Assembly (NCBI GenBank): GCA_040390065.1
Contig: JAZJZE010000009.1
Location: 474,930-538,929 of the forward strand
Reading direction: 5' to 3'
Source: a bacterium
Lineage (GTDB): Archaea > Thermoplasmatota > E2 > JACPAO01 > JAHFTW01
Length of the DNA stretch: 64,000 nucleotides
In this document: positions 24,785 through 41,301 of the stretch, one piece after another
Layout: each line of letters opens with the position of its first letter
Position numbering within the stretch: the stretch's first letter is position 1
Notes under the pieces: model-generated
Told to the model about the DNA's origin: nothing
The model's database searches: none
Seen by the model: the letters and a program-made list of their open reading frames with translations, nothing else
Translations under genes and position numbers: made by a program

Positions 24785-24851
24785 GCGCCCCCGCATCCCC
24801 CGCTGCCGGGTCGGCCAGCCTTTATCCCCCGGCGCCGGTGCGTCAGCCAAC

Positions 24852-25943: not shown

Positions 25944-25948
25944 TGAGT

Positions 25949-25970
25949 TCCGGCGAACACCAACGAGTGT
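25949..25970. repeat. attL-like site
   Basis: TCCGGCGAACAC-CAACGA-GTGT. Confidence 0.7.
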
Positions 25971-26008
25971 CCGACGGCGTTCAAGTAGGGCAGGCCTTAG
26001 CCTGAGGC

Positions 26009-27433
26009 ATGCATGCACGCAGCGCACTGGCCCTTGCGGGGCTTCTCCTGTTGGCTGGATGCTCGACACCGTCCGATCCCGTCCACGTCGGGCCGACGAC
26101 TCCGCCCTCGGCGGGTCCGTGGCAGGTCACGTACGACTGCCCGCCTGGCAGCAGCACCACGAGCGAGTTTCCAGTGTGCACAATCCATGCGGGCACCACG
26201 GCGAGCGGTGGTGCAGTATGGGGCCACGCGCAGGACGCCAAGCACCCAAACGTGATTGTGCTCTCGATGTACGGCATCGAGCCGACAGACGTCGGGGCCG
26301 GGCCCGCGGGAACGGCGCGGTTCTACGAGACCTACCTCCTCGTCACGCAGGACGGAGGGTCCACATGGAAACGCGTCGACCTGCCAAAGATTCCGACGCT
26401 CGAGCCAGCCTCCGAATTGGCGGGCGTCGACGACGTCATGGTTCGCGGCCTCACCTTCGGCCCCGACGGCGTGCTTCATCTCTTTGGCGGCGCGACCCAT
26501 GAGGCCCCGTATCCCTCTTCCCCCGTCAAGGCGTTCGGGAACTCTCCCTCGGCGGGCGGAAACTACACCATCTTCCATGTCTCGACGCCAGACCTTGGCG
26601 TGACGTGGGGAAAGCCGACGACGCTCGGCTGGGGCCAATTCCAGGACTTCGCGGAAGGCATGGTCCTTGCCGACGGCACCATCGTCGCCACCTTCAACGG
26701 CGCGGGCCAGCCCGATGAAGCCCGCGTGTCCCACGATGCCGGCGCCACTTGGCAGGCAGTTGACCTCCCCCCAACATGCTACTACCGCTCGTGGCTGGCG
26801 CGAGTCGACGGGAAAGCGACCATCGGCTGCACCCTCGAGGCCGAGATTTGGCAATACAACGCGACATCGGGCGCATTCGAAGACCTGGCGCCCATCCCTG
26901 GCATGGGAGACTACCAGGACAACCCGTGGATAGGCCAGGGTCCAGACGGAAACGTGACCATGATCCTGCAGGAACATTACGGCGCCGATGGCCCTCGCGT
27001 CTTGCACAGTCACGACGGCGGTCGGACGTGGAGCAAGCCAGTGTTCATCGCGGCGAACTGCCAGGCCTGCGCCGGACTGTACGAGTATCAACCAGGGGAG
27101 GGATACGGGCTGGACGGACAGGGGAACCTGCACGTTGTCTTTGCGGGGTCGTTCCACGCAACGGTTCCAAACGAGGGCCTCTACCGGCGCGTCCACGCTG
27201 TCTATGGGCCCGACCTGACGCGCTTGCACGACGCTGTGATGTACAACATGAGCGAGACCTGGACGCCCGATGCGGGCTACGCAGCATGGCGGGTCGAGAA
27301 ACGTGCATCCTGGATTCATGCACCCAACGGGGTCGTCCAGGCACGCGCTGACGGCGTAGCAAGCGATGTCAACTGGTGCTGGCGTCAGGTCGCAGATGCC
27401 AAGTGGTATGATGGCGTTGGCCCTGGGCGCTGA
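26009..27433 (+). CDS. Asp-box/BNR lipoprotein; 3' end possibly aberrant
   Basis: LLAGC lipobox; TQDGGSTW, TPDLGVTW, SHDAGATW, SHDGGRTW. Confidence 0.7.
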   Translation: MHARSALALAGLLLLAGCSTPSDPVHVGPTTPPSAGPWQVTYDCPPGSSTTSEFPVCTIHAGTTASGGAVWGHAQDAKHPNVIVLSMYGIEPTDVGAGPAGTARFYETYLLVTQDGGSTWKRVDLPKIPTLEPASELAGVDDVMVRGLTFGPDGVLHLFGGATHEAPYPSSPVKAFGNSPSAGGNYTIFHVSTPDLGVTWGKPTTLGWGQFQDFAEGMVLADGTIVATFNGAGQPDEARVSHDAGATWQAVDLPPTCYYRSWLARVDGKATIGCTLEAEIWQYNATSGAFEDLAPIPGMGDYQDNPWIGQGPDGNVTMILQEHYGADGPRVLHSHDGGRTWSKPVFIAANCQACAGLYEYQPGEGYGLDGQGNLHVVFAGSFHATVPNEGLYRRVHAVYGPDLTRLHDAVMYNMSETWTPDAGYAAWRVEKRASWIHAPNGVVQARADGVASDVNWCWRQVADAKWYDGVGPGR

Positions 27434-27505
27434 CACGGTGACTGCTGCAACGGTGGCGAGGATGAGGAGCAAGGCTGCCAGGATGTTGGCGGGCCGTCTA
27501 TTCAT
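27281..27505 (-). other. Signal peptide plus Cys-rich peptide ORF lacking a nearby in-frame stop
   Basis: MNRR + hydrophobic stretch + ANA, then 44 aa with 7 Cys ending PCC; an out-of-frame TAG follows one base later. Confidence 0.45.
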
Positions 27506-27581
27506 GCTGCACCCGGAGCAACCGCGGGGGGCGGTGGCGCTGGTTTGAGTAGGAGGGTCAAGCGGTTCTGTGGTGGAGGAT

Positions 27582-27773
27582 TCATCGGCGTTTTCTCCGG
27601 GGTTTTTGGTTCATGAAGCCGTAGCCTGCGGCTACGATGAAGGTTAGACTGAGGAAGGTGAGGAAGGGCGTGTCGGCGATGTAGCCGAGGAACCCTGCGG
27701 CGGCTGCGGCGGCAACGCACAATGCGGAGCCGCCGTAGAGTTTCACTTCAGGTGCGAGCTGGTAGCGAGCCAT
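27582..27773 (-). CDS. 63-aa two-TM protein with basic tail
   Basis: GGAGG RBS; two hydrophobic helices; KPRRKRR. Confidence 0.65.
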   Translation of the reverse strand: MARYQLAPEVKLYGGSALCVAAAAAAGFLGYIADTPFLTFLSLTFIVAAGYGFMNQKPRRKRR

Positions 27774-27798
27774 GATTTGCCTCCGAGCAATCGCTGTC

Positions 27799-28359
27799 TC
27801 AGAACAATGCGCCCGTGGTGAGGTTGACTTCCTCGCGATGCGAGACTGGGGCGAGGTCCTTCATTTGCGGCATCCAGAACGTGGTCCAACCGCTGGAGAC
27901 GTCGTTCTGGAACGCCTCGACGTCCACGACGTAGGCGCCGAGCCCTTGCGGATCGACGGGGAAGTGGACTTCCACGTCGAAGGCGCCTGCTCCGGCCTTG
28001 TCCACGACGTAGGCGGAATAGGAGGGTTCGCTGTTGCCGCCCGGCGTCGGGTAGTACACGGTTGTTCCGACGCGGCTGCCGGCCAGGCTGGCCGCGTGTC
28101 CATCCGTGGAGTCGTCCATGCCCGCGTACGTGACTTCGGCGGCGGCGAGTCTTCCGTCCTTGAGAGCACCGCCGGTGCAACTCGTGAAGGCCGCGTGCTG
28201 GCCGCCGTCCTTTCCGTCCGTAGTGAAGTGGCAGGTGATCTCGTAGTGCTTGTCCTTCAGTTTGGAGGCGTCTGTGACCTTCGTTTCGCCGGGCTTTCCG
28301 GCGCAACCAGCCAAGGCCAGCAATGCCAGGCAGGCCAACGCGGCGATTGCGAATTGCAT
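27799..28359 (-). CDS. Hypothetical lipoprotein
   Basis: LALAGC lipobox; starts 1 nt after the upstream stop. Confidence 0.7.
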   Translation of the reverse strand: MQFAIAALACLALLALAGCAGKPGETKVTDASKLKDKHYEITCHFTTDGKDGGQHAAFTSCTGGALKDGRLAAAEVTYAGMDDSTDGHAASLAGSRVGTTVYYPTPGGNSEPSYSAYVVDKAGAGAFDVEVHFPVDPQGLGAYVVDVEAFQNDVSSGWTTFWMPQMKDLAPVSHREEVNLTTGALF

Positions 28360-28360
28360 G

Positions 28361-28561
28361 CTAACGCCCCCTTGGCGCTCGGCCTGCGCCGCCGGCTGCG
28401 GCGGCGAAGCCTTGGCGGCCCACGATGAAGAAGGCACCAATCATGACGAGCAGGAGCGGCAAGGGTAGGAAGAGGCCGCTGGCCCACCAGAACGCCAAGA
28501 CCGCGATGCCGCCTCCGACCAATGATGGTGGCCACGTGCGCCACTTCGATTGGAACGTCAT
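28361..28561 (-). CDS. 66-aa two-TM protein
   Basis: ATGA-coupled to upstream gene; hydrophobic hairpin. Confidence 0.6.
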   Translation of the reverse strand: MTFQSKWRTWPPSLVGGGIAVLAFWWASGLFLPLPLLLVMIGAFFIVGRQGFAAAAGGAGRAPRGR

Positions 28562-29109
28562 ACGAGCGGCACCTCGTAGGTTCCTCGCTCGGAGTCCTCA
28601 ATGGTCACACCGGCGGCGCTTGCATCAGTGTAGTCGACTTGCATCAAGGCGGCACTTCCGCGGCTGGCGCTCGTGGTGAAGAGCACCGTTCCGGAGGAGT
28701 CGTGGATGCTGACCTGCAAGGCGACGGCGCCGCTGCTGTACACCTTGGCGGCGTCCGTCTTGGCGGCGGGGTTCTGAATCGTGGTTCCCGTCTCGGTCCA
28801 GGCGGTGCCGTCGAAGCGGATGTACACGGTCTGGCCGGTGCCAGCGACTCCTGGGAGGCCGTTTCTGAGTTCGGCAATGCAGCCTTGCGTGTCGCCGACG
28901 ATGCGTTGCACACTGTGCAATGGGTCGGTGATGCTGCATCCCGGGTCGTGCGTGCTGGCCGCGGCCTTGGGCGGGGTGGCTTGGTGCGGCAAAAGCAACC
29001 ACACGCCGCCGACGACGAGGGCGGCGATGACGAAGTGTTTCATCGTGACTTGCTTCTTCTTGGCCCCATGGGGCGCTTGGTTGCCGAGTTGGCGGAATTT
29101 TCGTGTCAT
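28558..29109 (-). CDS. Membrane-anchored hypothetical protein
   Basis: AGGAG RBS; basic N-terminus, single TM, beta-rich ectodomain. Confidence 0.65.
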   Translation of the reverse strand: MTRKFRQLGNQAPHGAKKKQVTMKHFVIAALVVGGVWLLLPHQATPPKAAASTHDPGCSITDPLHSVQRIVGDTQGCIAELRNGLPGVAGTGQTVYIRFDGTAWTETGTTIQNPAAKTDAAKVYSSGAVALQVSIHDSSGTVLFTTSASRGSAALMQVDYTDASAAGVTIEDSERGTYEVPLV

Positions 29110-29132
29110 AGCCAGGCTCCTTTCGTGTCGAT

Positions 29133-29516
29133 TTGGACTGTCTTGATGGCGGTCATGTCGTCGATGGGGCAGGCGCGGTATCCGGGTTGCCACCATTGGT
29201 CCACGTCAGGCACCTTGCACGAACCGAGCATCTGATGATTCGCCACCACGGCCGATCCTGGGCGATTTACCCAGGCAGCCACGCCGCAGGCTTCGTGCAC
29301 GGGGCGTTGCTGCGAGAGCCTGCCCTTGCTGCACTCCTGGCGTGGCTTACCCTGCAGCCGCCGCTTAGCCAGTGGGCCATCGTGGGCCACGCTGCGCGCG
29401 AATGGGGCTGGTCAAGTTCAACGACGCGACACCGCTTGGCCCGCCTGGTACAAGCGGGCCTTTCCAGACGCGAGACCGTAAAGCACGAGCAATTCTTGCA
29501 CGCCGTCAGCAAGTGA
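29133..29516 (+). pseudogene. Degenerate double winged-helix regulator, paralog of 37760-38245
   Basis: GWSSSTTRHRLARLV matches GWPRSTTQQRLRRLV; first HTH appears eroded. Confidence 0.45.
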
Positions 29517-29594
29517 CCAGGGCATTGCAGCCAAACAACATTCAGGCGCTACAGCGCAAGACGCCAACTTTCTTCGCCCGCATCCTCTGTGCCA

Positions 29595-30749
29595 TCAGGC
29601 GCAGGCCGTCGTGGGGTAGCACTCGACGCCAGAATTGTCTCCGTTGACGAGGACGAATTCCGGTGGGCCGTCCCACGGACCGTAGTTGAGGCCCCAGGCC
29701 TTCATGTACTGATTTCTATCAATCGAGTAGGATTCAACGAACCGCCCAGACAAAGGGGGCCGCACGTGCTTCGCGGCCGTTGTGGAGTCGATGATGTTGT
29801 GACCGATTGATAGTTGCAGGTAGTGAACAGCGGGGAAGTAAGGTGTCACCGCGTCGCCTCGCACTGCCAAGACCGTCGCATAGACGTACATCGGTAACAG
29901 TTTTCCCTGACTTTGGCTGAAGTACAGGAAGCCCCAGACGGGCACTGTCCCGTCTCCAGGCGCGAGGTCCGGCGGAACCAAGGCCTGCTGTGTGGTCTCG
30001 AAGGAGTCGAACTTGATTTCCTGGAAGAGTCCCGCGTTATCCAGGCTGTTGCCTTCGGGGGCGGCCACTGCGACAAGGATTGCGTCGCTCGACCACAACT
30101 GGCCTTGCACGTCAGCCACATCCCGAGAGTACGTGAAGTTGAGGCCCGGCAGGTTGATTGCCGGGACACCGGGGGTGGGCAACGTGTTGTTGAGGCCGAA
30201 GGTTTTCCCGGTGTCCACATCGAGGAACTTGCGGATGTTCGTGGCGTTGCCCAGGAAATTGGTCGTAACGGTCCACACAGAATCCTTGTCCACAGTACTC
30301 AACCAGTAATTCACCGTCGTCCGATTCGTGATTGAGGGATGCAGGGACGACAGGGTGCTAAGGGTCGAGTTGAGCGCGCCTTGGTTGTTTGGATCAAGAA
30401 CGGGTGCCACGGGCAGCGCCACGACAGTCATGCTTGTAGATGCTAGCGCCTGGCGGACCGTCGTTCCCGCGTCCCCGACCTGGACGACTTTGGCGTAATG
30501 ATCAAGCGGCGAATAGTACGAAAAGTACTCGCTGCGTGCGTAGATGGCTCCGCTGTCATCAAACTGGTCCGTGACGCTGACCCCCACGAGAATGTAGGCG
30601 TGTGTCAGATTGCCGACTGCGTTTCCTGCTTGGCTCGTAAGTGAGTTCGCCGTGCGTGATACATCGGGGACGGGCGGAGCACCGCAGCCGGCCAGTAGAA
30701 CCGCGGCAAGGATTGACAGAGCCGTGATTTGCATGGTTGCGTGTTTCAT
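29595..30749 (-). CDS. Hypothetical lipoprotein
   Basis: VLLAGC lipobox; starts 4 nt after the stop of the 1404-aa gene. Confidence 0.75.
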   Translation of the reverse strand: MKHATMQITALSILAAVLLAGCGAPPVPDVSRTANSLTSQAGNAVGNLTHAYILVGVSVTDQFDDSGAIYARSEYFSYYSPLDHYAKVVQVGDAGTTVRQALASTSMTVVALPVAPVLDPNNQGALNSTLSTLSSLHPSITNRTTVNYWLSTVDKDSVWTVTTNFLGNATNIRKFLDVDTGKTFGLNNTLPTPGVPAINLPGLNFTYSRDVADVQGQLWSSDAILVAVAAPEGNSLDNAGLFQEIKFDSFETTQQALVPPDLAPGDGTVPVWGFLYFSQSQGKLLPMYVYATVLAVRGDAVTPYFPAVHYLQLSIGHNIIDSTTAAKHVRPPLSGRFVESYSIDRNQYMKAWGLNYGPWDGPPEFVLVNGDNSGVECYPTTACA

Positions 30750-30753
30750 TGTT

Positions 30754-33700
30754 TCAGCTCCACAAACTGTCGCCAACCGATTCATGCGGCCCCCAGGCAG
30801 GGTGGTAGCCGGAATCGTAGATGCCGGCGTTCGTCTTCATCAGGCTCATGTCGACTTGCGTCGAATAGTGGTTGAAGATGGTAAACCATGCGGAATGGTT
30901 GGGTCCCGGAGTGGTCTGCCATTGCATGGTATTGGCGCATGAAGGCGGTACGTTCGTGGCGCTGTAATCGCCTTCGGCTGAGAATTCCAGGCCGGGATCA
31001 TACGCACTGCCATCCATCAGGGTCTCGTACTGGTTCGAGTCCCCGTGCTCGTAGCAGTGGGTGTTCGCATTCGTTTTTCCGTTGTGGTCCTTGTACTCAT
31101 CCTGGAGGTAGAACGCGTAGTGGCCCCATTCATGTGCTAGGTCCTTGGCCCACCTGTTTCCAGGAGGGCCGTCGACCTGGACACCTACGTCCTTTGCCTC
31201 CGACATGGCCATAAAGACGTGACCAAGATTGGCAAACTTGAACTGGCAAGTAGATGGGACGGACTGACAGGCCGGATCAGTTGCCTTCTTGAAATCAATT
31301 CCGCCTACATTCGCCATGAACCAATGACCGACCGTATTGTCGGCCTTGTCGTGGAAAATCTGGATGTCCGCATTGACCCATTCCGGGTCAGTTGATTGAC
31401 TCCCAGTGCACGTGTGGATGGTGACCTTGCCAAACAGGAACTTGCCTGACGTGGCATCCCAGAGGTCGTCGCTGGCCGTCCTTATGGATCCTTGGAGGGA
31501 TTTCATCCATGCCGAATCCGCTGCCTCGCACCAGGGAACCGCTACGTCGACGTCGAAGCCCTTCACGTCCTTGACATGGGGGTCGAGTCCCCATCGGACC
31601 TCGTCCCAATTCGCGACGCCGTCGTGGTCGTAGTCGGAAGCGCCGTCATTGATGAACGGGTTGAGGCCGACGAAATTGGCAACAGTCGGATATGCATAGA
31701 CGCTCTGCGACAACGGGGACTCGCGATCCTTCATTTCCAGCGCGAAGGGAATCTTGTCACCGTCCTTTCCATTCGTGTACAAGTAGAACCACAATTGCCC
31801 TTCCACCCAGTCGCCCACGCCCCAGCCCTTGCAGTGACCGTACCCGTTTCCGTCGGCTGGAACGTCGTCGCCCAACCACGTGCCTGTCTGCATGCTATAG
31901 ACCAGCGTGCAGCCCGGATAGGCTTCCGGATGCGGGCCGATGTTGATTGGATGGGGTGCAATGAATCCATCGTCGTACAGGTTGAGAGTGGGGCCGACCA
32001 GCCACAACTGGTCCGGGACGTTGACCGCGAGGTCCGTCCACGCCGGTTCGGCCTCCGCTTGACCATTGGTCTCTTCCTGGCGATTGTTCACGCACGTCAC
32101 GCTCCAACACAACTCGTAATACGCGTTTCCGGCGCCTTGAATCATGGCATACCGCGTGACGTGTGCTCGAATCGACAAGTCCGCGTGCGGGTCCTGGTCG
32201 ATGCTGTCTTTGACGCCGTCGCCATCCGTGTCGGGGTCTACTGGATTCGTGCGTGTTGAGACAAGTTCAAGCCAATCCCCGATACCGTCGCCATCGGTGT
32301 CCTGCTTGAGGGGATTCGTGAAGTACGTCTTGTACACCCCGTAGACCTGAATCGTGACGCCCTTGACCTCGTTGTAGTCGCTCAAGCCGTCAAAGTCCGT
32401 GTCAACCTTGGAGTCGCTGGTCTTCCAGTAGTCTTCCTCGCAATTGTTGAGGCCGTCGCCGTCGGCGTCCATGACCCTGACGAAGTTGTTCTTGACGGTC
32501 TGCGCCTTGTCGGAGCCTACGCTAACCCAGAGTCGAATCTGGTAGCTGTTGATGACTTGGTCCGTTCCCGGCGGAAGGTTGCATGGGTAGGTATGGTCCG
32601 CGTACGGGCCACTGTACGTGTGGGGCAGGTTGTCTCCCCAATCCCATTCGTACGTGAGTTGGCCGCGGCTGTACGGGTCGTAGCTACACGACGCATCGAC
32701 GTGAACCACGGAATGGCTGGTCCCTTCCGCCGAGACGGTGAAGCAGACCTTGGGCGGGCCTAAGGCCGGCGGCGAGGGCGGATTCGACGGCGACGGGTTT
32801 GTTGCCTGGTTGGCTGTGGGCGAGGATTTCGTGATGATGATGTTGTCGACGGAGCCCTGGACGGAGCCCCACCCTCCCGACGGTGTGGCGAAGTCCGTGC
32901 TGCCGTAGGTTTGCATGCCAATCGTGCTGAACTGGAATTCGTCGCCTGCGGTCGTGCCGACTTGGCGGCTCCATGTCAGGACTTTCTTTCCGGTGCTGTC
33001 CGTGATCTCCAAGATCAGGGTCTTGGCGGCGGCCGTGTATGTCAGTTTGAACGATTGCTGGGGGTCGGTTTGGGAGCCCGGGCCGGCAGTGCCCACGTTG
33101 CAGGCCCAGCCGGGGGGCGGTCCTGATGCGGGGTTGTACGAGATGCAGTAGCCGGTCGGGTTGCCGACGTAGTCCGAGGTGTAGTCGTAGTAGAAGATGG
33201 CAAGCGTGCTGTAGCGGCCAAGGGCGCCGTTTCCGTCAGCCGGGCCCACGTAGAATGGCACGGCAAAACGCGTGCCCCCCTGCCGGCTCTCGACGTTCCA
33301 GTTCTCCGTAATCGTGAAGGTGTCCTGCATGGTCAGTGGCGCGTCGAGGGGCCGGCTGAAGTCCTCGTAGGAGGCATCGTTCATGTTGGACAAGAGCTGC
33401 ACGTTGTGGTTCCAGGCGTCCCAATGGATGTCGCTTAGGGGTTGGTCGTTTGTCCTTACGAATCCGTTTGCGTCATCGAAGGTGTAGACGGTACTGAAGT
33501 GGGGGACGTGGACGACGATGAGCCCATCGCTGGAGATTTCCGTTTCGAGGGTCAAGTTGTCCTCATTGCGGAAGGCGTAGCCGCTAAATCCCATGCCGTT
33601 GAGCCACGTCGTATTGTAGGCCACGTCCTGGCCCGACGTGTCATTGCCGCCGTCGAACGCAACGGCCAAGTGGTCCGACGGGGCCGCGACGGAAAGGTCG

Positions 33701-34968
33701 ACGGTTCCGTTGAGGCCGATGGCCGGGATGGTGCTTGCTACGGCCGTCGGGAGCGTGGCAAAGTCCACGACCATCGCGCGGTCCAGAAGTTGCACGGATG
33801 CCGGGTTGCCAATCGTGTAGAGGCTGCTTGAGCCGAGGGTGATTGCGGAGAAGTCCGTAATGGCGCCGCCGCCAGTCGTGAACTTGACGTAGGGGCCACC
33901 CAGGCCGTCCATGACGACGAAGGGCCGCGACGAACCCCAATCGTTTCCCAACAGGTTCACGATGGCCCCAGCGCGGAACACGGTTGTCGCATTCAAGGTC
34001 GGCGGCCCGGCAAAGAGTGTGGAAAGAAGGGTTGGGGTCAGCAGGCTCACGTTGAGGTCGACTTGGACACCGTTGGGCGTCGCTGGCATCTTGATGGGGG
34101 CATTCTTGAGGACGTCAAGAATTGCCGCGGCGTCGGTGATGCGGAACGTCGAATTCGATGGCCACGGCGCGCTCGGAATCACGTAGTGCGTCGCGGCGAC
34201 GTTGTCGGCATCATTCGATTCCAGAGTGACGTGGTTGGAGTTGGGGAAGACGGAAACGTCGTAGATGCCCGGCAGGGCCGATGTCCAATTGAAGACGAGT
34301 TCCTGGCTCTGGCCGGCCTTGATGATGGGCACGTACGCTACCTGCTGGAAGATGGAGTACTTGCCCTGGATGGAGACATCCAATGTCACGTTGACGACGG
34401 CCGCCGGTTGGCCGCCGAGGTTCCGGATGGTGGATTCGACGTAGAAACCGATTGGGTGGGGGATGACCTTGGGCTTTGAGGCGACCAGGTTCGCAAGGCC
34501 GGAGGTGCCCAGGATGGATTGGATGACGCCGCACGCATCCGGCAGCGCCGGCTTCACTCCGAGCCCAGGATCGGGCGCGGAGGGTAGCGAGCACGCCTTT
34601 GCGCACTTCGCAACCTTCACGCCAAGGGGTGTGGATGTAAGGTTGTTGGCGGTTCCCTGGGGGTTGGCCAAGGCGGAGTTGAGTGTCTTCGTCGTCTGGC
34701 CCGCAATGGATTGGGCGCATGCCACCGTGGCGTCGACTTGCTGCACGGGTGCCGACACGACCGAGGTCAGGTTGCCGGGGAGCTGGTTCGTCACGTTGGT
34801 AATCAATGGTTGCAGGGGCGGGATGTGCGGCAGGGGCGGAATGTTTGGCAAGGGCGGTAGGTTGGGCGTCGGTGGCACTTGGGCGTCGGCGGGTCCGCCA
34901 AGGCCGTTGAGGAGGAACGCTAGAGCGCATGCAACGGCGGGTAGCACTCGGGAAAGGTTGGGGTTCAC
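30754..34968 (-). CDS. Large secreted multidomain protein: CARDB, PKD, Ca-binding DxDGDG repeats, C-terminal CLCA-like Zn metalloprotease
   Basis: Signal peptide; TIRNLG...ESNDADN (CARDB); DASCSYDP..YEWDWGD (PKD); DTDGDG repeats; LAHEWGHYAFYLQDEY. Confidence 0.8.
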   Translation of the reverse strand: MNPNLSRVLPAVACALAFLLNGLGGPADAQVPPTPNLPPLPNIPPLPHIPPLQPLITNVTNQLPGNLTSVVSAPVQQVDATVACAQSIAGQTTKTLNSALANPQGTANNLTSTPLGVKVAKCAKACSLPSAPDPGLGVKPALPDACGVIQSILGTSGLANLVASKPKVIPHPIGFYVESTIRNLGGQPAAVVNVTLDVSIQGKYSIFQQVAYVPIIKAGQSQELVFNWTSALPGIYDVSVFPNSNHVTLESNDADNVAATHYVIPSAPWPSNSTFRITDAAAILDVLKNAPIKMPATPNGVQVDLNVSLLTPTLLSTLFAGPPTLNATTVFRAGAIVNLLGNDWGSSRPFVVMDGLGGPYVKFTTGGGAITDFSAITLGSSSLYTIGNPASVQLLDRAMVVDFATLPTAVASTIPAIGLNGTVDLSVAAPSDHLAVAFDGGNDTSGQDVAYNTTWLNGMGFSGYAFRNEDNLTLETEISSDGLIVVHVPHFSTVYTFDDANGFVRTNDQPLSDIHWDAWNHNVQLLSNMNDASYEDFSRPLDAPLTMQDTFTITENWNVESRQGGTRFAVPFYVGPADGNGALGRYSTLAIFYYDYTSDYVGNPTGYCISYNPASGPPPGWACNVGTAGPGSQTDPQQSFKLTYTAAAKTLILEITDSTGKKVLTWSRQVGTTAGDEFQFSTIGMQTYGSTDFATPSGGWGSVQGSVDNIIITKSSPTANQATNPSPSNPPSPPALGPPKVCFTVSAEGTSHSVVHVDASCSYDPYSRGQLTYEWDWGDNLPHTYSGPYADHTYPCNLPPGTDQVINSYQIRLWVSVGSDKAQTVKNNFVRVMDADGDGLNNCEEDYWKTSDSKVDTDFDGLSDYNEVKGVTIQVYGVYKTYFTNPLKQDTDGDGIGDWLELVSTRTNPVDPDTDGDGVKDSIDQDPHADLSIRAHVTRYAMIQGAGNAYYELCWSVTCVNNRQEETNGQAEAEPAWTDLAVNVPDQLWLVGPTLNLYDDGFIAPHPINIGPHPEAYPGCTLVYSMQTGTWLGDDVPADGNGYGHCKGWGVGDWVEGQLWFYLYTNGKDGDKIPFALEMKDRESPLSQSVYAYPTVANFVGLNPFINDGASDYDHDGVANWDEVRWGLDPHVKDVKGFDVDVAVPWCEAADSAWMKSLQGSIRTASDDLWDATSGKFLFGKVTIHTCTGSQSTDPEWVNADIQIFHDKADNTVGHWFMANVGGIDFKKATDPACQSVPSTCQFKFANLGHVFMAMSEAKDVGVQVDGPPGNRWAKDLAHEWGHYAFYLQDEYKDHNGKTNANTHCYEHGDSNQYETLMDGSAYDPGLEFSAEGDYSATNVPPSCANTMQWQTTPGPNHSAWFTIFNHYSTQVDMSLMKTNAGIYDSGYHPAWGPHESVGDSLWS

Positions 34969-35061
34969 GGGGTCACCTGTTCAATCGGCTTTTCTACGCG
35001 TGTGGGCCTAGCGGTGCTGCGGCTGGTGGTCGGTGCCCCACGCCCAAGGTCGATGCCAACG

Positions 35062-35080
35062 TGGCCCACAAATGGCCCAC
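35062..35080. promoter_or_regulatory. Tandem TGGCCCAC repeat, candidate RHH operator
   Basis: Copies at 35062-35069 and 35073-35080 (11-bp period) between divergent genes. Confidence 0.3.
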
Positions 35081-35117
35081 GTAGAGCCAAGACATAGAGT
35101 TTGTCCCAGGTTTGAGT

Positions 35118-35390
35118 ATGGGTCGCACGAAGATTCGAGGCAGCACTCCGGATTCCACGGATCGCATCCACGTCGCCGTCGACCGCGACTTGTTGAAGTG
35201 GATTGACGCCAACCTGGCGCCTGGTGGCCCGTTTGGCAGCATGACGCACGCCGTCGAGTTTGCCCTTCGCCACTTGCGCGACGAACAGGAAGCACTTCGT
35301 CAGGCGTGCAAAGACGGGAAAGTTCCCTTCAAGGATACCACAATGTGGCTGCTGTACCAGGAACTCCTGGACGAGTCCAGGCGCCGCTAA
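35118..35390 (+). CDS. Ribbon-helix-helix family regulator
   Basis: RIHVAVDRDLLKWID...FGSMTHAVEFALR. Confidence 0.7.
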   Translation: MGRTKIRGSTPDSTDRIHVAVDRDLLKWIDANLAPGGPFGSMTHAVEFALRHLRDEQEALRQACKDGKVPFKDTTMWLLYQELLDESRRR

Positions 35391-36754
35391 GGCTGAAGCC
35401 ACCAATCCCCGCCCTTCTGCAGCTTTGCAAGGACGGGCGCCAATGAGACATCCGTGGCCGCATCCACCGCATAGGAAGCCTGCAAGGTGACGGCTACGCG
35501 AAGCCACTCCGCAGCCTTCTCTGCATGCGGGTGCGCGTCGCGCGCGCTCGCGAGGCTCGCGCAGCAGCGCGCGGCTTCGTAGGCATTCTCGGCGCGAAGG
35601 GGAACCAAGTCGATTCCCAGGCGGATTTCCTGCTGCAACCACAAGTCGGCCTCCGTGTGCATCAGCAACGCTTGCTCGATGCGGTTCAAGCCGGAAAGGC
35701 ATAAGCCGCGAACAAAGGTTGCTTCCGCGTCTGTAGGGTCAAGATCGCGTGCCCGGTCTACTTGGCGCAGGGCCTCCGCGAATCGGCGTTGGTTGACCAA
35801 CTCATAGGCCCATTCCCGGTACTCCCCGCCCTTGGCAGCAGCGACGGGGTCATGACCGGGTTGGCGGCGGTGAATGATGATTCGGCGTTGCGTGAATCGA
35901 ACGGTGGGCCAGGCCAGGACCGCGACCAGGGCGAGTCCGGCCACAGGCCACAACAGCCACGCAACAGGGCTGGCGGAACTGCGGGATGGCACAATCGCGT
36001 GGCCGTCTACAACGGCCTCGCCGTCGCCGGACAAGGCAGCAGTGATGGGAAGGGACGTGCCGCGGCCAGCAAGACGCGCCGCCAGATTTCCTGAGACGAC
36101 TAGGTGGTTTCCCGTCAGGGCGGTGGAGGCGCCGCCTACGTCGAGACTCCCCACCGCCGACTCCAACGCAAGCCCCGTCGTGCCAAGGTTGGCGTCCCCA
36201 TCCGTGAGCAAGGTAGGCGGCACCATGCCGAGAGGCACCATGAGGCGCCCATTGGTCACGTAGAGGTAAACCTCCACGTCGCGTCCGAAGATTTGAGACA
36301 TGTCGGGCACGGCGGCAGGAAGGAGGGGGGATTGTTGAGGGCCCGTTTGGACATCCTGCGTCTGGCCATTGGCGGTCAAGGTTGCATTCCATTTCCACAA
36401 GGACAGCACGAACGAGCCGGCAATTTCCACGACGCCAATGCACCCGGACCACGCCAGCGCGGCGCCGATTGAACGCGTCATCGGGGGACGCGCAGCATTA
36501 ACGTAGGGTACGCGTTGCAGCGTCGACGCGTCGGACGCGCTGGTAGATTGGCAGGTTGCCTTTACGGACGGCGGCGGAGCGCCGTCCACGGGGAAGACGT
36601 TCCACCGGAAGCTGTTTCGCGTTGCCGTCCCTTGCAGCGTCGCATCCGCGTAGTCCTGCGGTTGGGTGGTCGGGTTGACGTCCTTCGGATTTCCGGTGGC
36701 GTGGACGGAGACATCGGCGGAATCTACCTCCATGTGCAGCCGCTCGGCCGCCAT
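35387..36754 (-). CDS. Single-pass membrane protein with beta-rich N-domain and C-terminal TPRs
   Basis: TM WLLWPVAGLALVAVLAW; ARDLDPTDAEATFVRGLCL and NAYEAARC TPR patterns; CTTAAT ~27 nt upstream. Confidence 0.65.
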   Translation of the reverse strand: MAAERLHMEVDSADVSVHATGNPKDVNPTTQPQDYADATLQGTATRNSFRWNVFPVDGAPPPSVKATCQSTSASDASTLQRVPYVNAARPPMTRSIGAALAWSGCIGVVEIAGSFVLSLWKWNATLTANGQTQDVQTGPQQSPLLPAAVPDMSQIFGRDVEVYLYVTNGRLMVPLGMVPPTLLTDGDANLGTTGLALESAVGSLDVGGASTALTGNHLVVSGNLAARLAGRGTSLPITAALSGDGEAVVDGHAIVPSRSSASPVAWLLWPVAGLALVAVLAWPTVRFTQRRIIIHRRQPGHDPVAAAKGGEYREWAYELVNQRRFAEALRQVDRARDLDPTDAEATFVRGLCLSGLNRIEQALLMHTEADLWLQQEIRLGIDLVPLRAENAYEAARCCASLASARDAHPHAEKAAEWLRVAVTLQASYAVDAATDVSLAPVLAKLQKGGDWWLQP

Positions 36755-37210
36755 CGAGAATCCGGGAATCGGTTGGGCATTAAGTGTTCGCCGCCGGGGG
36801 CCTTCGCGCCTGTAGGCGCTCCGGCAAGGCGGTCGGCGCCTGCTGGCGCCTGCGAAGAATCGGTGACGGCACATCACCGGTGAACGCACCCGCCAACGTC
36901 CTCTGGACGCGACGGGCAATCGCTGACTACGGGCCCCCGCGGGATTCACGTCGCCGCGTCTGAGGCAACCGCAGGATGCGCACCCGCTTGCGGGTGGTCG
37001 CCGTGGGATTGCGTCACGGGGCCCCGGCGCGTCGGCGCACCCGCCGCCAAGTCTGGTGGGGCCGGGCCCCAACCCGGTAAACCCCGCCCGGCAAGAGCGT
37101 GAGCGCTTCGCCCGCCACCCCAACCATGCTGGGGCCAGCATGCGCTTTGGGTGGCGTGCTTTGCCTTCACGCCCTTTGCCGCAGCGGGGCTAAAGCCGGC
37201 TCGGTGCCCC

Positions 37211-37759
37211 ATGGCCCCACCAGAATTTGCCGACGAGTGCCACCGAACTGCCTGCCCCGTGCCCCAGCCACACGGAGCCCACTGCCCCCGCATCCCGGGC
37301 GCCCGCCTCGCAGGCTGCCTTGAATGCGGCGCCACAATCCTGCTGGCCCACGACTACGCGCCGGCTACGGCGCGCTGCAAGACGTGCCGCGACGCGACGA
37401 CGACTGCCACGATGACGACGGACCGCGCGCCGACGGCGGATTGGCTACGCCGCTTCCGAAGCGAAGCAACGGACGACGAGATGCCGCTCGGCGAAGCCGT
37501 CCACACGCCCACCTCGGGCGACCGGCTCCGCGCGGCGGAAGTGACGATGCGCCTGCGAACCAGCGCCGCCGGCCGAGTCGTGACCTCGACGCCGACACGC
37601 AGCATCGGATGCGACGATGCCGGCCGCCCCGTACGCCCCGCCGCAAAGCGGCGCGAGGCAAGCGATGACCAAGACGACGTCGAGGAACCCCAGTCCGTGG
37701 CGCGCTTCGGCGGCCGACTGCCCGCCCTCGCCGGCTACCGTGCCCAGGCAGGTGCCTAA
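37211..37759 (+). CDS. Cys/His-rich putative zinc-finger protein
   Basis: CLEC...CKTC plus C/H cluster; stop abuts next ATG. Confidence 0.5.
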   Translation: MAPPEFADECHRTACPVPQPHGAHCPRIPGARLAGCLECGATILLAHDYAPATARCKTCRDATTTATMTTDRAPTADWLRRFRSEATDDEMPLGEAVHTPTSGDRLRAAEVTMRLRTSAAGRVVTSTPTRSIGCDDAGRPVRPAAKRREASDDQDDVEEPQSVARFGGRLPALAGYRAQAGA

Positions 37760-38245
37760 ATGGGCCCGAACCAGGCCACTGTTCGCCGGGCCAGCATCCT
37801 GGCTTGGGTTGAGGCCAATCCGGGCCAAGGCTTCCGCGCCCTTTCACGAGGAACCTGCATCCCGACCGGGACGCTGGCGCACCATCTTGGCATCCTGAAG
37901 CGACGTGGCCTCGTGGCGGACAGGGCGCTTGGCCCTCGCCGCTTGTTCTACCCCACCGACGCCATCGTGGACGACCCCGCCAAGGCGGCGATGAACCTTC
38001 ACCCCGGCTTGGCCGCCCTTTACGCGTTCGTGCAGGCCAACGGTCCCTGCATGCAGAACGTCGTTCTTGCCGCCTTCGAGGCGCAGGGTTGGCCGCGTTC
38101 CACGACGCAGCAGCGCCTCCGCCGCCTTGTGGCTGTCGGCGGCTTGCAGGCGGTGCGGGGCGTGCGGTCACTACGATACGCGGTCCAGGCACCCGCGGTG
38201 GCCCAGTTGCCTCTTGCCTCCCGCCTGCAGGTGGTGTTGGCATGA
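37760..38245 (+). CDS. Double winged-helix transcription regulator
   Basis: VEANPG...TGTLAHHLGILKRRGLV and a second HTH STTQQRLRRLV. Confidence 0.75.
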   Translation: MGPNQATVRRASILAWVEANPGQGFRALSRGTCIPTGTLAHHLGILKRRGLVADRALGPRRLFYPTDAIVDDPAKAAMNLHPGLAALYAFVQANGPCMQNVVLAAFEAQGWPRSTTQQRLRRLVAVGGLQAVRGVRSLRYAVQAPAVAQLPLASRLQVVLA

Positions 38246-38340
38246 CCACCAAGACAATCCAAGTCTGCTCCGTTTGCGGACGCGCCTGTCCCGGCGGCGA
38301 CTGCGCGCATCCGGCGTGTCCTTCGCAGCGGGTGTTCTAA
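38242..38340 (+). CDS. 32-aa Cys-rich microprotein
   Basis: MTTKTIQVCSVCGRACPGGDCAHPACPSQRVF; ATGA and TAATG overlaps on both sides. Confidence 0.6.
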   Translation: MTTKTIQVCSVCGRACPGGDCAHPACPSQRVF

Positions 38341-39257
38341 TGTCATCCGCGCGCCAGGCCGTGTACGCGAAGGTCACCGACGCCATCATGGGGAAGCTCC
38401 GCGAAGGCGTTGCGCCGTGGCACAAGCCCTGGAGCGATGCGGATCGGCCTCGCAACTTCGCCACCGGTCGAGCCTACTCCGGCATCAACGCATTCGCGCT
38501 CGGCTTGTTCGGGCCGACGCCGTATTGGCTGACCTTCAATCAGGCACGCCTGATGGATTGCCAGGTGCGCCAGGGGGCCAAGGGTGTGCCCATCCTGTTC
38601 TATGGTACGCAGACGCGGCAACGCTTGGTCAAAGGCAACAACGGGGCGGCCGTGGAGGATCATGAGGTTGGCTTCGTGCGGTACTTCCACGTCTTCAACG
38701 CCGTTGACGTGGACGGCATCGACGCCGCCAGACTCGGCCAATCGCCATCGCCCTTCGAGCCCATTGAGGTCGCTCAAGGGTTGCTTTCCGCCGTGCAGCC
38801 GACGCCGGAGATTAGGCATGGCGGCGACGTGGCTGCCTTCAACCCGGCCCGTGACGTGCTTCGGATGCCGCGGCCCGAGGACTTCGCTCGCAGCGTGGAC
38901 TACTACGCCATCCTCTTCCACGAACTGACCCACTGGACGGGCCACCAGTCGCGCCTCGACCGCGAGTCTTTGCGCGACGCGAAGAGCTTCGGGGACGAAT
39001 CGTACAGCCGCGAGGAACTGGTGGCCCAAATGGGCGCCGGCTTCCTATGCGCCTTGACGGGCATCCAAAACGACACCATCGAGCAGTCCGCAAGCTACCT
39101 CGACAATTGGCTCAAGCAACTCCAGAACGACCGCGGCCTACTCATCTCTGCCGCGAGCCAGGCGCAACGCGCCACCGACTACTTGACCCGCAGCTGGACC
39201 CAGCCCGCGGCAATCGGCGTGACCGACCAAGAAACGGAGGCCACAGCGGAATCGTGA
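38340..39257 (+). CDS. ardC: ArdC-family antirestriction protein (ssDNA-binding N-domain plus zincin-like domain)
   Basis: PWHKPW, YSGIN, WLTFNQA, VFN, HELTHWTGH..RL.R, YSREELVA, YLDNWL. Confidence 0.92.
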   Translation: MSSARQAVYAKVTDAIMGKLREGVAPWHKPWSDADRPRNFATGRAYSGINAFALGLFGPTPYWLTFNQARLMDCQVRQGAKGVPILFYGTQTRQRLVKGNNGAAVEDHEVGFVRYFHVFNAVDVDGIDAARLGQSPSPFEPIEVAQGLLSAVQPTPEIRHGGDVAAFNPARDVLRMPRPEDFARSVDYYAILFHELTHWTGHQSRLDRESLRDAKSFGDESYSREELVAQMGAGFLCALTGIQNDTIEQSASYLDNWLKQLQNDRGLLISAASQAQRATDYLTRSWTQPAAIGVTDQETEATAES

Positions 39258-39329
39258 AGCCTCCCCTTGAATCGTGAGCGCCATTGCGGCGACCTTTCCC
39301 CCTTCCCCAGCGAATGCCAGGTGAAACCC

Positions 39330-40706
39330 ATGAAGAAAATTGAAACTGAAGTGCCAGCCACGAGTGGCGAGAAGCTGCTCGTTCCCGTCAACCAAGTCCG
39401 CGAGTCCCCGGACAATGGCCGCATCAACTACGATGAAGCCGCCCTGAAGGACCTGATGCAATCCATCAAGTCCACGCGCCTGGAAGAAGACGTGGTAGTG
39501 CGACGCGTCGAAGCCGACGTGTACGAGGTCGTGGATGGGCACCGTCGATTCCGTGCTGTGCAGCGCCTCGGCTGGGACGCCGTGCCGGTCCTCGTCAAGC
39601 CCTTGACGGAGGAGGAGGCGCGGTTGTACCGTGTGGCGACGATCTTCCAACGCGCCAACGCAACGCCGTACGAGGAAGCACGCTACTTGGCCGCGGCTTT
39701 GAAGAATCCGGGCATGACGCGGCAACTCTTGTCGCAAACGTGCGGCATCAAGCCCGGCACCCTGCGAAACCGATTGGAACTCCTGGAGTTTCCGGAGCAG
39801 GTCGCCAAACGCGTCGGTGTCGATGGATTCGCGGCGGAGCACGCCCGCATCCTTGCCAGCCTTGCTGCCTACCCCGACGCCTTGGCAGTTGGCTTGAAGG
39901 TGGCGGAGGACAAGGACACTGAGGGTACGATGCGCTCCGCTCCCCGCTTCTTCGAGGACGTCAAGAAGGCGCTCGTCAAGGCCAACGCTGCCAGGGACCC
40001 CACGAGCAACCGCCTCTGGGAAGTGCGAAACGCCTTCCCGACTTTCGAGGGCCAAGCCGGCAAGTTGGCTTGCGTGAAACACAAGACCCAGTTCGGTGAA
40101 GCTGTCCTGGTCCTCGACGTTGCGGCCTTTGATGGACTCGTGGACAAGGCGAAGGCGACGTTGGAGCGCCGCAAGGAAAAGGACGCCAAGCCGAAGGAGG
40201 ATGCCGACGAGGCACGCCGGATTCGGCGCCGGGAGCGGCAACTCGAAGTCGAACACGCCGCCAACGAATGGAAACGGGATGCGCTGCGGGAGGCCGCCTT
40301 TTCGCGCCTCGGCAACATCAAGGAGGTTGAGGCCTCGGACTTGGCCAGCCCCCTTCTGGACGCCCTGGAAGTCGGCATCGACGAGAACGACATCGAGCCC
40401 CTGGCAGAGGCGGCGGGCGTCCCCGTGGAACGCCTGCGAGGCTTCCTTGCGTGGAACAATGAGGGCGAAGCCGCCAGCCAGGACCTCATACAGCACTCGA
40501 CGCCGATTGAGTTGCTGCGACTGGTGCTCGCCTTGAGCGTGGCTCGCAGCCTCGATGGCCAGTCCGGGACTTGGAGCACTCTGTGCGGGCACTGGACCGG
40601 CAAGACCATGGCGGCTTGGGACGACGCCGCCACGGAGGCGGCCCGCGGCATCGTCAAGGCCAAGGGCAAGCAGGGCGAAGCGGAGGAAGCCGAGGCAACC
40701 GCCTAG
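39330..40706 (+). CDS. ParB/Spo0J-like protein with extended C-terminus (mobile-element type)
   Basis: LMQSI...YEVVDGHRRFRA ParB-N motif, followed by HTH; AGGTGA RBS; no parA nearby. Confidence 0.85.
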   Translation: MKKIETEVPATSGEKLLVPVNQVRESPDNGRINYDEAALKDLMQSIKSTRLEEDVVVRRVEADVYEVVDGHRRFRAVQRLGWDAVPVLVKPLTEEEARLYRVATIFQRANATPYEEARYLAAALKNPGMTRQLLSQTCGIKPGTLRNRLELLEFPEQVAKRVGVDGFAAEHARILASLAAYPDALAVGLKVAEDKDTEGTMRSAPRFFEDVKKALVKANAARDPTSNRLWEVRNAFPTFEGQAGKLACVKHKTQFGEAVLVLDVAAFDGLVDKAKATLERRKEKDAKPKEDADEARRIRRRERQLEVEHAANEWKRDALREAAFSRLGNIKEVEASDLASPLLDALEVGIDENDIEPLAEAAGVPVERLRGFLAWNNEGEAASQDLIQHSTPIELLRLVLALSVARSLDGQSGTWSTLCGHWTGKTMAAWDDAATEAARGIVKAKGKQGEAEEAEATA

Positions 40707-40729
40707 ACGCGACTGGAGCGTGCTGACCC

Positions 40730-40945
40730 TTGACTTGGACTGACCGGCAACGCCTCGAACTCATGGGGCTGTTGGACGATGCCGCCCTGGACCACTTGCG
40801 CGGCGAGTACGCTCCGGCGTACCAGGCCGTCATGGACGCCTGCGACACGTGCCTGCACAGCTCCGACTTCACCCACGACGATGCCGTGGCTGAATTGGAT
40901 GTCGTCCTGGAGTGGCTCCTCAAGTCGCAAGGGGTCCCCGTATGA
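40730..40945 (+). CDS. Small acidic hypothetical protein
   Basis: 71-aa ORF continuing the operon. Confidence 0.5.
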   Translation: MTWTDRQRLELMGLLDDAALDHLRGEYAPAYQAVMDACDTCLHSSDFTHDDAVAELDVVLEWLLKSQGVPV

Positions 40946-41048
40946 TGATCCGGGCAGCCCTCCCCTTTTCCCCCTTTTTCCGGGGCGGTGCGCCGAATGG
41001 TTCGGCCAGGGGCTCTTGGGTTGCTAAGCCAGTTCTTCTTGTCTTTGT

Positions 41049-41210
41049 GGATGCTTCTGAAACCCGCGTCTTCACGCGTGTTTCCACATCCTTTCTCATA
41101 CTGGCCTCTACCGTATCGTACGTTCGTAGACCCCCCTTTATGGGGGGTCTCCTCCGTCCGTACGTTCGTGTACGTATGGAAAAAGCGGAACCCCCCGAAG
41201 CCCAGTTCCG
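41049..41210. other. oriT/origin-like cluster of hairpins and direct repeats
   Basis: AGACCCCCC-TTTAT-GGGGGGTCT (41128-41150) flanked by CGTACGTTCGT at 41117-41127 and 41159-41169; further stems at 41049-41091 and 41186-41210. Confidence 0.5.
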
Positions 41211-41237
41211 AACCTCCCCCACCCATAAAATAGGTTT

Positions 41238-41260
41238 AACACCAAAGAGTGTTTACCGGA
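41238..41260. repeat. attR-like site
   Basis: AACAC-CAAAGA-GTGTTTACCGGA. Confidence 0.7.
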
Positions 41261-41301
41261 GGGCCCCCGACGTCGTCGTCGGTTCCCCAGCCACCGTTGG
41301 C

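Follow-up and report, generated by a model that had tools for sequence, protein, structure and literature searches.

The island of foreign DNA that separates the genes for a replication factor C (RFC) small subunit and a DUF4332 protein in the archaeal sequence analysed here is probably a truncated, one-ended copy of a family of integrative elements which combine a tyrosine integrase with, in some members, a putative rolling-circle replication (RCR) initiator, and not a new kind of satellite that borrows the Xer recombinase of its host. The sequence is a 64,000 nt stretch (the window) of a Thermoplasmatota genome (NCBI GenBank assembly GCA_040390065.1, contig JAZJZE010000009.1, positions 474,930 to 538,929 of the forward strand), and we refer to the island as E1. 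A sequence-only reading of the window had instead proposed an undescribed satellite system between 25956 and 41252, with a decayed integrative and conjugative element (ICE) as the alternative.

The history that we favour is that E1 entered at a CCGGAGG core beside the DUF4332 gene and kept its terminal block, a stem-loop, the backbone genes for a winged helix–turn–helix (wHTH) regulator and a Cys-rich protein, an accessory operon for ArdC, ParB and a 71-aa product, and a cargo of secreted proteins. The integrase/Rep module, the second inverted repeat and the second copy of the core would then have been lost, by deletion, rather than never having been present. As the second inverted repeat and the integrase are missing, E1 cannot excise by the mechanism of its family and is now probably a fixed genomic island.

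Inserted DNA with one family-type end

The genome (G000, with the window on its contig C9) is a metagenome-assembled genome (MAG) of 2.68 Mb in 50 contigs and is 89% complete. The G+C content of the window varies between 57 and 73% and falls to 57–63% across approximately 27–36 kb, and the genes around the island are archaeal, including those for the RFC small subunit, TruD and an HTH protein of the HVO_0163 type. Together with the position of the best ArdC relative in a Thermoplasmata MAG, these features assign the genome to a high-GC archaeon of the Thermoplasmata. Eight congener loci around TruD were compared, with 20 kb fetched per locus; in three of them (G004, G008 and G012) the RFC and DUF4332 genes are neighbours 200–720 nt apart, and in the other five RFC lies outside the 20 kb fetched. 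In the window the same two genes (23699–24784 and 41322–42638) flank 16.5 kb of DNA that is additional to these three congeners. Homology to G004 stops at the RFC stop codon (24782) and restarts exactly at 41256, four bases past the right-hand 12-mer described below, and the extra DNA is therefore 24785–41255 and not 25956–41252; the proposal of an inserted island stands, as does its right edge, and only its starting point has to be moved. E1 is thus genuine inserted DNA derived from a mobile element, and its right end is confirmed to the single base. The core CCGGAGG (41256–41262, + strand) marks the place where homology to the empty site of G004 resumes, and the same core lies on both sides of a relative on contig C14 of G002. 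No RNA family was found in the window with Rfam and no tRNA gene with ARAGORN.

The right end of the island follows a pattern that recurs throughout the genus. The 12-nt family terminal repeat CACCAAAGAGTG (41240–41251, + strand) lies within a 15-mer, AACACCAAAGAGTGT (41238–41252), and is followed, counting from the 12-mer, by TTTA and CCGGAGG. Ahead of it is the conserved terminal block (41184–41239, + strand), made up of GGAACCCCCCGAAGCCCAGTTCCGAACCTCCCCCACCC and an A/T-rich box, and the wider non-coding block (40994–41259, + strand) is 86% identical to C8:40732–40998 and 78% identical over 208 nt to a copy on G004:C2. G000 has three copies of the terminal block: one in the window, one on C8, where the final 266 nt of E1 recur at 86% identity, and one at the start of C48, which matches the final ~75 nt. 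Among the congeners the ~70-nt block occurs in 7 of 12, several of which have two or three copies, and it was found in 0 of 19 genomes from other genera of the taxonomic family. All copies end in CACCA[A/G]AGAG[A/T]G or a near variant, then 2–4 nt, then copy-specific sequence, and E1 has this same succession of ~70-nt block, 12-nt repeat, 2–4 nt and core at 41184–41262. The A/T-rich box lies 7–13 nt ahead of the 12-mer in every copy and looks like an outward-facing archaeal TATA box. A more general role for the 12-mer as a promoter element was considered and rejected for tRNA genes, only 1 of 52 of which has it.

Further inside the right end, at 41117–41169 (+ strand), a hairpin with a 9-bp stem (AGACCCCCC/GGGGGGTCT, 41128–41150) is bordered on each side by the 11-nt direct repeat CGTACGTTCGT. 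This had been described as a structure resembling an origin of replication or transfer, and comparison bears out that it is a conserved cis element: 10 of 11 family copies have a perfect stem-loop of 6–12 bp at a distance of 31–41 nt inside the GGAACCCC block, and that of E1, 36 nt from the terminal block, falls within the family range. The stems differ in sequence among copies, except that E1 and the C8 copy have an identical 9-bp stem, and for 7 of the 11 copies no more than 3 of 300 mononucleotide shuffles gave a stem of the observed length. Judged by this covariation at a fixed position, the hairpin is a real conserved element, and it is probably a site of replication or recombination. Because the family has an HUH-like Rep, a rolling-circle origin is the most economical reading, and the stem-loop would most likely be the origin recognised by Rep or else an arm-type recombination site. 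A 3.7-kb element in G008 has the hairpin, yet no Rep homologue was found in G008, which leaves room for an arm-type recombination site or a transcript structure.

Complete relatives and the architecture of the family

Members of the family range from 3.7 to ~36 kb and occur in one Thermoplasmata genus. In those that are complete, each end bears one copy of a 12-nt inverted repeat (CACCAAAGAG[A/T]G or CACCAGAGAGAG) and, just outside it, a direct target repeat of 7–12 nt, with a tyrosine integrase beside one repeat and the ~70-nt block, preceded by its stem-loop, at the other end. They insert at the 5′ end of tRNA-His, in the anticodon arm of tRNA-Pro or at sites outside tRNA genes. Read outward from the body of the element, both ends of every complete relative present the 12-mer, a spacer and the core, in that order. 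The 12-nt inverted sites around a 7-nt repeat resemble the core-type sites and overlap region of tyrosine recombinases, and the 12-mers may well be the core-type binding sites of the integrase, with the 7-nt repeat as the overlap region.

The element on G008:C14 (3.7 kb) has a 12/12 inverted repeat, a 12-nt direct repeat, ATGGCCCGGGTA, that runs into tRNA-His, and a 365-aa integrase (PF00589, 3.9e-16); its + strand reads ATGGCCCGGGTA, CTCTCTTTGGTG, terminal block, integrase, CACCAAAGAGAG, cccct and ATGGCCCGGGTAgtg, the last of these being the start of tRNA-His. The element on G004:C12 (~35.9 kb) has a 12/12 repeat of the CACCAGAGAGAG type, the direct repeat CCGTCGG and an integrase at its far end, and that on G007:C10 (9.9 kb) has a 12/12 repeat, an integrase and the direct repeat TGGGACC in the anticodon arm of tRNA-Pro. 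The 12-kb element on G002:C14, with a 10/12 inverted repeat and the direct repeat CCGGAGG, retains as its integrase a 171-aa remnant which matches the N-terminal 137 residues of the G008 integrase (E 1.3e-7).

Some further sites bear on how these elements sit in their hosts. That of G007:C10 (L135, G007:C10:18100–38000, ~8830–18790) splits the host tRNA-Pro(TGG) at the anticodon arm, leaving the 5′ half in the left flank and the 3′ half in the right, and has a complete tRNA-Pro(TGG) of its own right after the integrase, which apparently compensates for the disrupted host gene. At G004:C2 ~152930 (L127 1432–1475) there is an attP-like sequence, CACCAAAGAGTG atactt AGCCCCGTA TTCCTCTTAGTG, followed by the terminal block and with no integrase match to its left. 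The site is a tandem junction whose neighbour has decayed or else a relict promoter left behind upstream of a tRNA-Gln.

In G000 itself, contig C13 starts 3 nt before tRNA-His and C19 starts 196 nt before tRNA-Gln(CTG) (G000:C13:1–80, G000:C19:1–200). Among the 52 predicted tRNA genes, tRNA-Gln(CTG) is alone in having the family 12-mer immediately ahead of it; these breaks look like unassembled family elements at tRNA 5′ ends. The contig ends of C8 and C19 may be the two ends of a third element at tRNA-Gln(CTG), with which the 9 nt that they have in common, AGCCCCGTA, and the repeat upstream of the tRNA gene agree. The flanking genes are neighbours in 0 of 5 congeners, and so this assignment is put forward tentatively. 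Taken as a whole, the family is apparently specific to this Thermoplasmata genus and undescribed, and no published description was found by a full-text literature search, which did not cover supplements.

A larger sibling in the same genome

The relative that is most informative for E1 is a second element, E2, in the same genome. Contig C2 starts inside an ArdC gene and continues through genes for a wHTH regulator, a Cys-rich protein, an inserted GmrSD protein, a protein with tetratricopeptide repeats (TPR) and a small protein, after which E2 encodes a 2869-aa secreted protein, a 448-aa protein, a 365-aa protein and a tyrosine integrase (C2:19725–20963; Pfam, 1.9e-12). Its proteins are 61% (ArdC, over the 133 N-terminal residues present on the contig), 74% (wHTH), 73% (Cys-rich), 67% (TPR) and 72% (small protein) identical to those of E1. 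The 13-mer CCACCAAAGAGAG lies just outside the start of the integrase, and its inverted partner, identical at 13 of 13 positions, ends the terminal block on C48; the host genes that flank E2 (a 539-aa gene on C2 and purN on C48) are adjacent in 4 of 5 congeners and 35 kb apart in G007.

The 365-aa protein of E2 looks like an HUH-type rolling-circle initiator. It is matched to Rep_1 clusters by its Atlas features (score 0.97) and to IS91-type Y2_Tnp transposases by its structure (TM 0.69). An AlphaFold2 (AF2) model built from seven homologues has a predicted local distance difference test (pLDDT) score of 77.8, and HUH nucleases occupy 16 of the top 19 rows of VIA structure matches (Z 5.0–7.5), among them SIRV1 ORF119 (Z 7.5), parvovirus NS1, Helitron, adeno-associated virus (AAV) Rep, geminivirus Rep and relaxases. 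An HPH motif and one Tyr are invariant across the seven homologues. Homologues occur in 7 of 31 other genomes of the taxonomic family, and on G010:C62 one lies ~400 nt from a terminal block. The 448-aa protein may be a Zot-like ATPase, the leads being Atlas matches to Zot/AAA ATPases. E2, with its integrase and these candidate ATPase and Rep proteins, is a larger relative beside which E1 reads as a deletion derivative, and the idea of an undescribed satellite system loses its ground accordingly.

Relative to E1, E2 carries a 3-kb insertion (G000:C2:1747–4781, L024) with a restriction gene of the GmrSD/DUF262 type (GmrSD_N, 8.4e-30) and a 160-aa ORF. A 62%-identical copy of the latter adjoins a TPR paralogue (33%) on C4, in an island (G000:C4:99664–108951) that may be a different mobile element. 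Besides these two genes, the island has a tyrosine integrase at C4:106228 and serine-recombinase matches at C4:106906 and at C4:108637.

Functions and sequences missing from E1

The observation of the sequence-only reading that the island encodes no recombinase was upheld by every search made. Pfam on the main open reading frames (ORFs) of E1 gave no recombinase and no relaxase family; a six-frame PF00589 search gave six matches in the genome and none on C9; PF00239 gave no match within the range of the window; and tblastn with two family integrases reached a best E value of 0.097. When the E2 proteins, the Rep-like one included, were searched against the genome by tblastn, no homologue of Rep, integrase or ATPase was found in E1. 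These results support the conclusion that E1 is non-autonomous, as neither a recombinase, a relaxase nor a replication initiator was found.

The cis-acting sequences of the far end are missing too. By analogy with G002:C14, this end should consist of CCGGAGG, ~7 nt, CACTCTTTGGTG and the integrase. No inverted 12-mer with fewer than 2 mismatches exists in the window, the sole 2-mismatch copy inside the island sits within the BNR gene with no core beside it, and no inverted repeat copy with CCGGAGG was found in the window. The lack of an inverted 12-mer with its core, together with that of integrase, Rep and ATPase homologues, makes E1 one-ended.

A one-ended element could in principle be the product of assembly, if C9 had been mis-joined within the backbone that the siblings have in common and the integrase end lay on another contig. 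Sibling elements do break contigs C2, C8 and C48, and the Logan contigs of run X1 break at 37.1–37.3, 38.7–39.6 and 41.1–41.2 kb, where paralogous variants add depth. Against this, E1 and E2 DNA is only 70–78% identical, too divergent for collapse, one Logan contig covers 23800–37103 without a difference and another crosses the right junction (41196–42800), and genome-wide repeat scans revealed no orphan integrase end with a CCGGAGG core. We consider an artefact very unlikely. The region occurs in one DNA sequencing run, probably of the source sample, and no RNA run was listed for it. No Logan contig links 41255 with the left edge of the island or runs across an unoccupied site, and the joints listed have sides of 20–30 nt and lie at other coordinates; this is uninformative either way, as contigs cannot show rare forms.

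The left 15-mer and satellite interpretations

The left boundary originally proposed for the island is a 15-mer, AACACCAACGAGTGT (25956–25970, + strand), which is identical to the right 15-mer at 14 of 15 positions and is followed by T and CCGACGG. These two are the only matches in the window at up to one mismatch, and 0 of 100 shuffles gave a match; a repeat listing of the window lacks the pair, its exact seed being too short. The 12-mer at 25956 points into the island, so that by the rules of the family the body of the element would be on the side of the 363-aa gene to its left, and the words that follow the two 15-mers differ (T+CCGACGG on the left, TTTA+CCGGAGG on the right). Three further loci of G000 (C1:95989, C11:82903 and C21:2132) carry this 15-mer, which is frequently lengthened to AACACCAACGAGTGTCCGAC and has five genomic occurrences in all. 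A single copy is also present in each of 3 of 12 congeners, that of G004 being within the C12 element. In most of these places an ATG follows on the same strand at a distance of 24–105 nt, and proteins with signal peptides are the products of several of the genes concerned. Judged by its polarity, its place inside inserted DNA and its recurrence elsewhere, the left 15-mer is not an end of the family type; of the att-like ends first described, the pair of repeats is real and the right one is a true end, whereas the left one does not behave as a boundary. It may be the operator of a regulator or a relic of old ends. The copy on C11 (GACACCAACGAGTGT at 82901) lies ~900 nt beyond the end of a low-GC (58–64%) island (G000:C11:70900–83900) that encodes a 2824-aa secreted protein, 45% identical to the giant protein of E2.

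These data bear directly on whether E1 might be a working non-autonomous satellite, for which the integrase and Rep of a sibling act in trans and the left 15-mer serves as the second recombination site. The close likeness of its 266-nt end to that of the proposed third element on C8 (86%, with the identical 9-bp stem), the non-chance direct repeat formed by the 15-mers, the intact backbone ORFs, and other copies of the terminal block that lack an integrase (G004:C2:47065, with none nearby, and G002:C14, with its truncated one) would all suit such a satellite. The 12-mers are inverted in every complete relative, with the same 7-nt core after each, whereas the E1 pair is direct and followed by unlike words; the left motif recurs at places that are not ends, inside the G004:C12 element and upstream of unrelated genes; and the extra DNA begins 1.2 kb further left. 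A working satellite is therefore unlikely, and it is likewise doubtful, and decidedly so, that E1 is alive as a hitch-hiker without Rep or integrase, which would retain the origin hairpin, the promoter-like terminal block and a single core site of the family and be excised or replicated in trans, through an unconventional second site at 25956, by a co-resident sibling with the matching 266-nt end and hairpin stem. Were the latter true, E1 would become the first satellite in archaea to depend on an integrative rolling-circle element.

The proposal that the host recombinase XerA integrates and excises E1 at dif-like sites, as in an integrative mobile element exploiting Xer (IMEX), fares worse. 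A dif-like site has two inverted arms of ~11 nt around a 6-nt spacer, and one such site is the unique dif of the chromosome. E1 is indeed an island without a recombinase, and its 15/16-mers are partly palindromic (AACAC-N6-GTGTT at the right end), with short direct repeats near the edges as in an IMEX. The palindrome arms are only 4–5 nt long, the unoccupied site in G004 has the CCGGAGG core without a palindrome, and the 15-mer lies at three further loci in G000, whereas dif should be unique. The right repeat finds its explanation in the family, being the terminal inverted repeat of elements with a tyrosine integrase of their own, and integration by Xer is, in our estimation, most improbable. 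The reading that we prefer remains that of a one-ended family member.

Gene content of the island

Next to the right end, the genes of E1 are those of the family backbone and its accessory operon. The ~90-aa small conserved protein (35112–35390, + strand; 72% identical to the E2 copy) has no family match and looks ribbon–helix–helix-like by eye; an apparent sign of decay in this small gene, an in-frame stop in 34986–35390, was rejected, as the conserved part begins after the stop. It is followed by a membrane protein with C-terminal TPR (35387–36754, − strand; 67% identical to E2), the ORF of which is open to 37141, with conservation and a plausible start beginning at 36754. A 202-aa Cys-rich protein of the family backbone (37151–37759, + strand) has no family match, and its AF2 model is unusable (pLDDT 42.2). 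The 161-aa winged-helix regulator (37760–38245, + strand; HTH_HVO_0163_N, 2.5e-8) is 74% identical to that of E2, and both it and the Cys-rich protein read toward the terminal block, as in the family.

The operon that adjoins this backbone encodes ArdC (38067–39257, + strand, likely start near 38340), with an ArdcN domain (1.1e-26, 93.9 bits) and a zincin MPTase-PolyVal domain (1.4e-36, 125.8 bits), both of which exceed the cut-offs, and a ParB-like protein (39267–40706, + strand, likely start near 39330) with ParB_N (2.1e-17) and HTH_ParB, for which TIGR00180 gave 100.4 bits against a cut-off of 58.45. An acidic ORF of up to 71 aa (40730–40945, + strand) has a C-terminus that is conserved at the ends of contigs C8 and C48. 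Like the wHTH gene, these three are on the + strand and point at the structure at 41117–41169, so the description of an ArdC/ParB operon directed at it was accurate. Of the best 80 ArdC loci, 71 are bacterial and 9 archaeal by record title; the closest, in a Thermoplasmata MAG (51%), has in common with E1 only the wHTH and ArdC genes and lacks the family repeat. ParB homologues are scarce and distant, being found in 3 of 31 genomes of the taxonomic family at 26–34% identity, and no relative emerged when metagenomes were scanned with ParB.

In bacteria, ArdC and ParB are characteristic of conjugative plasmids and ICEs, and together with the predominance of bacterial ArdC loci they would be consistent with E1 being a decayed ICE in which both are remnants of a conjugative leading region. 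In searches with the Pfam, PHROGs and NCBIfam libraries, which took in some but not all of the small ORFs, neither E1 nor E2, the larger of the two, matched a family of VirB4-like proteins, coupling proteins or relaxases; Pfam found no conjugation gene on the E2 ORFs, and there is no AAA_10/VirB4-like match in the 89%-complete genome. Family members in G004 go from the terminal block directly to the wHTH gene without ArdC or ParB, so the operon is an accessory module of the E1/E2 lineage, and the maintenance genes of E2 look like a rolling-circle Rep and a Zot-like ATPase. A decayed ICE is thus highly unlikely, transfer by a conjugative helper finds no support in these searches, and the family looks like an integrative rolling-circle plasmid or provirus instead.

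The remainder of the island is cargo, and its description as secreted or membrane proteins proved apt, the lipobox and signal sequences having been read from translations. From left to right it comprises a 363-aa multi-pass membrane protein with a C-terminal CxxC...CxxC ribbon (24852–25943, + strand), the membership of which in the element is uncertain and which has an ortholog in 0 of 12 congeners, with weak C-terminal matches only; a 474-aa BNR/sialidase-like lipoprotein (26009–27433, + strand; BNR_2 1.3e-6, 28.4 bits, below the Pfam cut-off of 31.4); a lipoprotein of ~190–213 aa (27799–28440, − strand) and a 212-aa membrane-anchored protein (28558–29196, − strand), both without a family in Pfam and read from translation; a 396-aa lipoprotein (29595–30785, − strand) with a 34% paralogue on contig C6; and a 1404-aa secreted protein (30754–34968, − strand) with CARDB and thrombospondin-type repeats (TSP3), which occupies the place held by giant secreted proteins in the sibling elements.

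Outside the island the window has a second low-GC stretch (60–61%) at 52001–54000. A very GC-rich repeat of ~60–100 nt with GGCG/CGCC runs and small palindromes, found at 44571–44627 of the window, at G000:C2:21110–21220 and in intergenic DNA of G004 (L016 ~3900–4200), looks like a repetitive extragenic palindromic (REP) element.

Comparison with known systems

Two archaeal systems show particular likeness to the family. The pTN3-like elements of Thermococcales have tyrosine integrases of the non-suicidal type, for which the 5′ half of a tRNA gene serves as attB, and the account in PMC8371274 calls these integrases ‘unique in archaea’ in using this half, the tRNA then being expressed from the integrase promoter. 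Similarly, the family member in G008 integrates at the 5′ end of tRNA-His, and its integrase adjoins the tRNA, which thus gains upstream element DNA. The family differs in that its duplication is only 7–12 nt long and several members use non-tRNA sites or an anticodon arm, and E1 has neither integrase nor tRNA; the likeness is one of target site.

The SNJ2-type temperate pleolipovirus provirus, in the portrayal given by PMC13107129, has an integrase, an RCR initiator and a hairpin origin beside att, and its circularisation sets the hairpin and promoter region next to the integrase. As far as that portrayal goes, the family resembles it in joining a tyrosine integrase, a rolling-circle-type initiator and a conserved hairpin near one att end. 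The Rep of SNJ2 (Rep-Arvir) is described in the same source as Rep_trans-like with a fused wHTH, whereas that of E2 appears HUH-like and bears Cys clusters at both its N and its C terminus; neither capsid nor spike genes were recognised, and E1 has no Rep. The short duplication, 12-nt inverted ends, conserved terminal block and probable HUH Rep set the family apart from both pTN3 and SNJ2.

Among elements that depend on others for movement, E1 differs from an IMEX in having a repeat that comes from an integrase-encoding family, in place of a unique dif, and from an integrative and mobilizable element (IME) in having no integrase or relaxase family match. Its adjacent and co-oriented genes for an ArdC with both defining domains and a ParB with ParB_N and HTH_ParB are like the leading-region modules of bacteria, from which they differ by their archaeal host, the lack of detected conjugation genes and their accessory status in the family. 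All in all, E1 resembles a decayed integrated plasmid or provirus in how it works.

Strength of the interpretation

Several points count against E1 being a truncated family member. The left 15-mer repeats the right end directly at 14 of 15 positions, which is not due to chance, and this reading does not account for its place. The left edge of the insertion is placed by synteny only to 24785–26009, as the intergenic DNA of the congeners is not alignable. Decay has not gone far in E1, as each of its backbone ORFs is still intact, and the comparisons turned up no relative close to the E1 lineage itself that retains its integrase end; that the module was lost, and not simply never there, is argued from siblings that are 61–74% identical in protein. 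Two sibling elements break contigs in the MAG, which leaves a small probability of a mis-join within the repeated backbone. The HUH assignment of the 365-aa protein has middling structure scores, all with Z below 8, Foldseek of the model against the PDB gave nothing at E ≤ 0.001, and a six-frame search with Pfam Rep_1 gave no match, its controls being equally silent.

Implications

If this interpretation is right, E1 represents an ordinary outcome, in which a mobile element without its moving end has settled as a fixed island that carries genes for surface proteins. The broader finding concerns the family, with its 12-nt inverted ends, 7–12-nt duplications, tRNA 5′ targets, covarying hairpin and, in some members, HUH-like Rep. 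According to PMC8371274, pTN3-like elements are the only others for which integration at tRNA 5′ ends has been reported. The cargo of the family includes giant adhesin-like proteins and, in one lineage, an ArdC–ParB operon of bacterial type. The defined att architecture and cis elements are testable, and possibly usable, in archaea for which there are no genetic tools.

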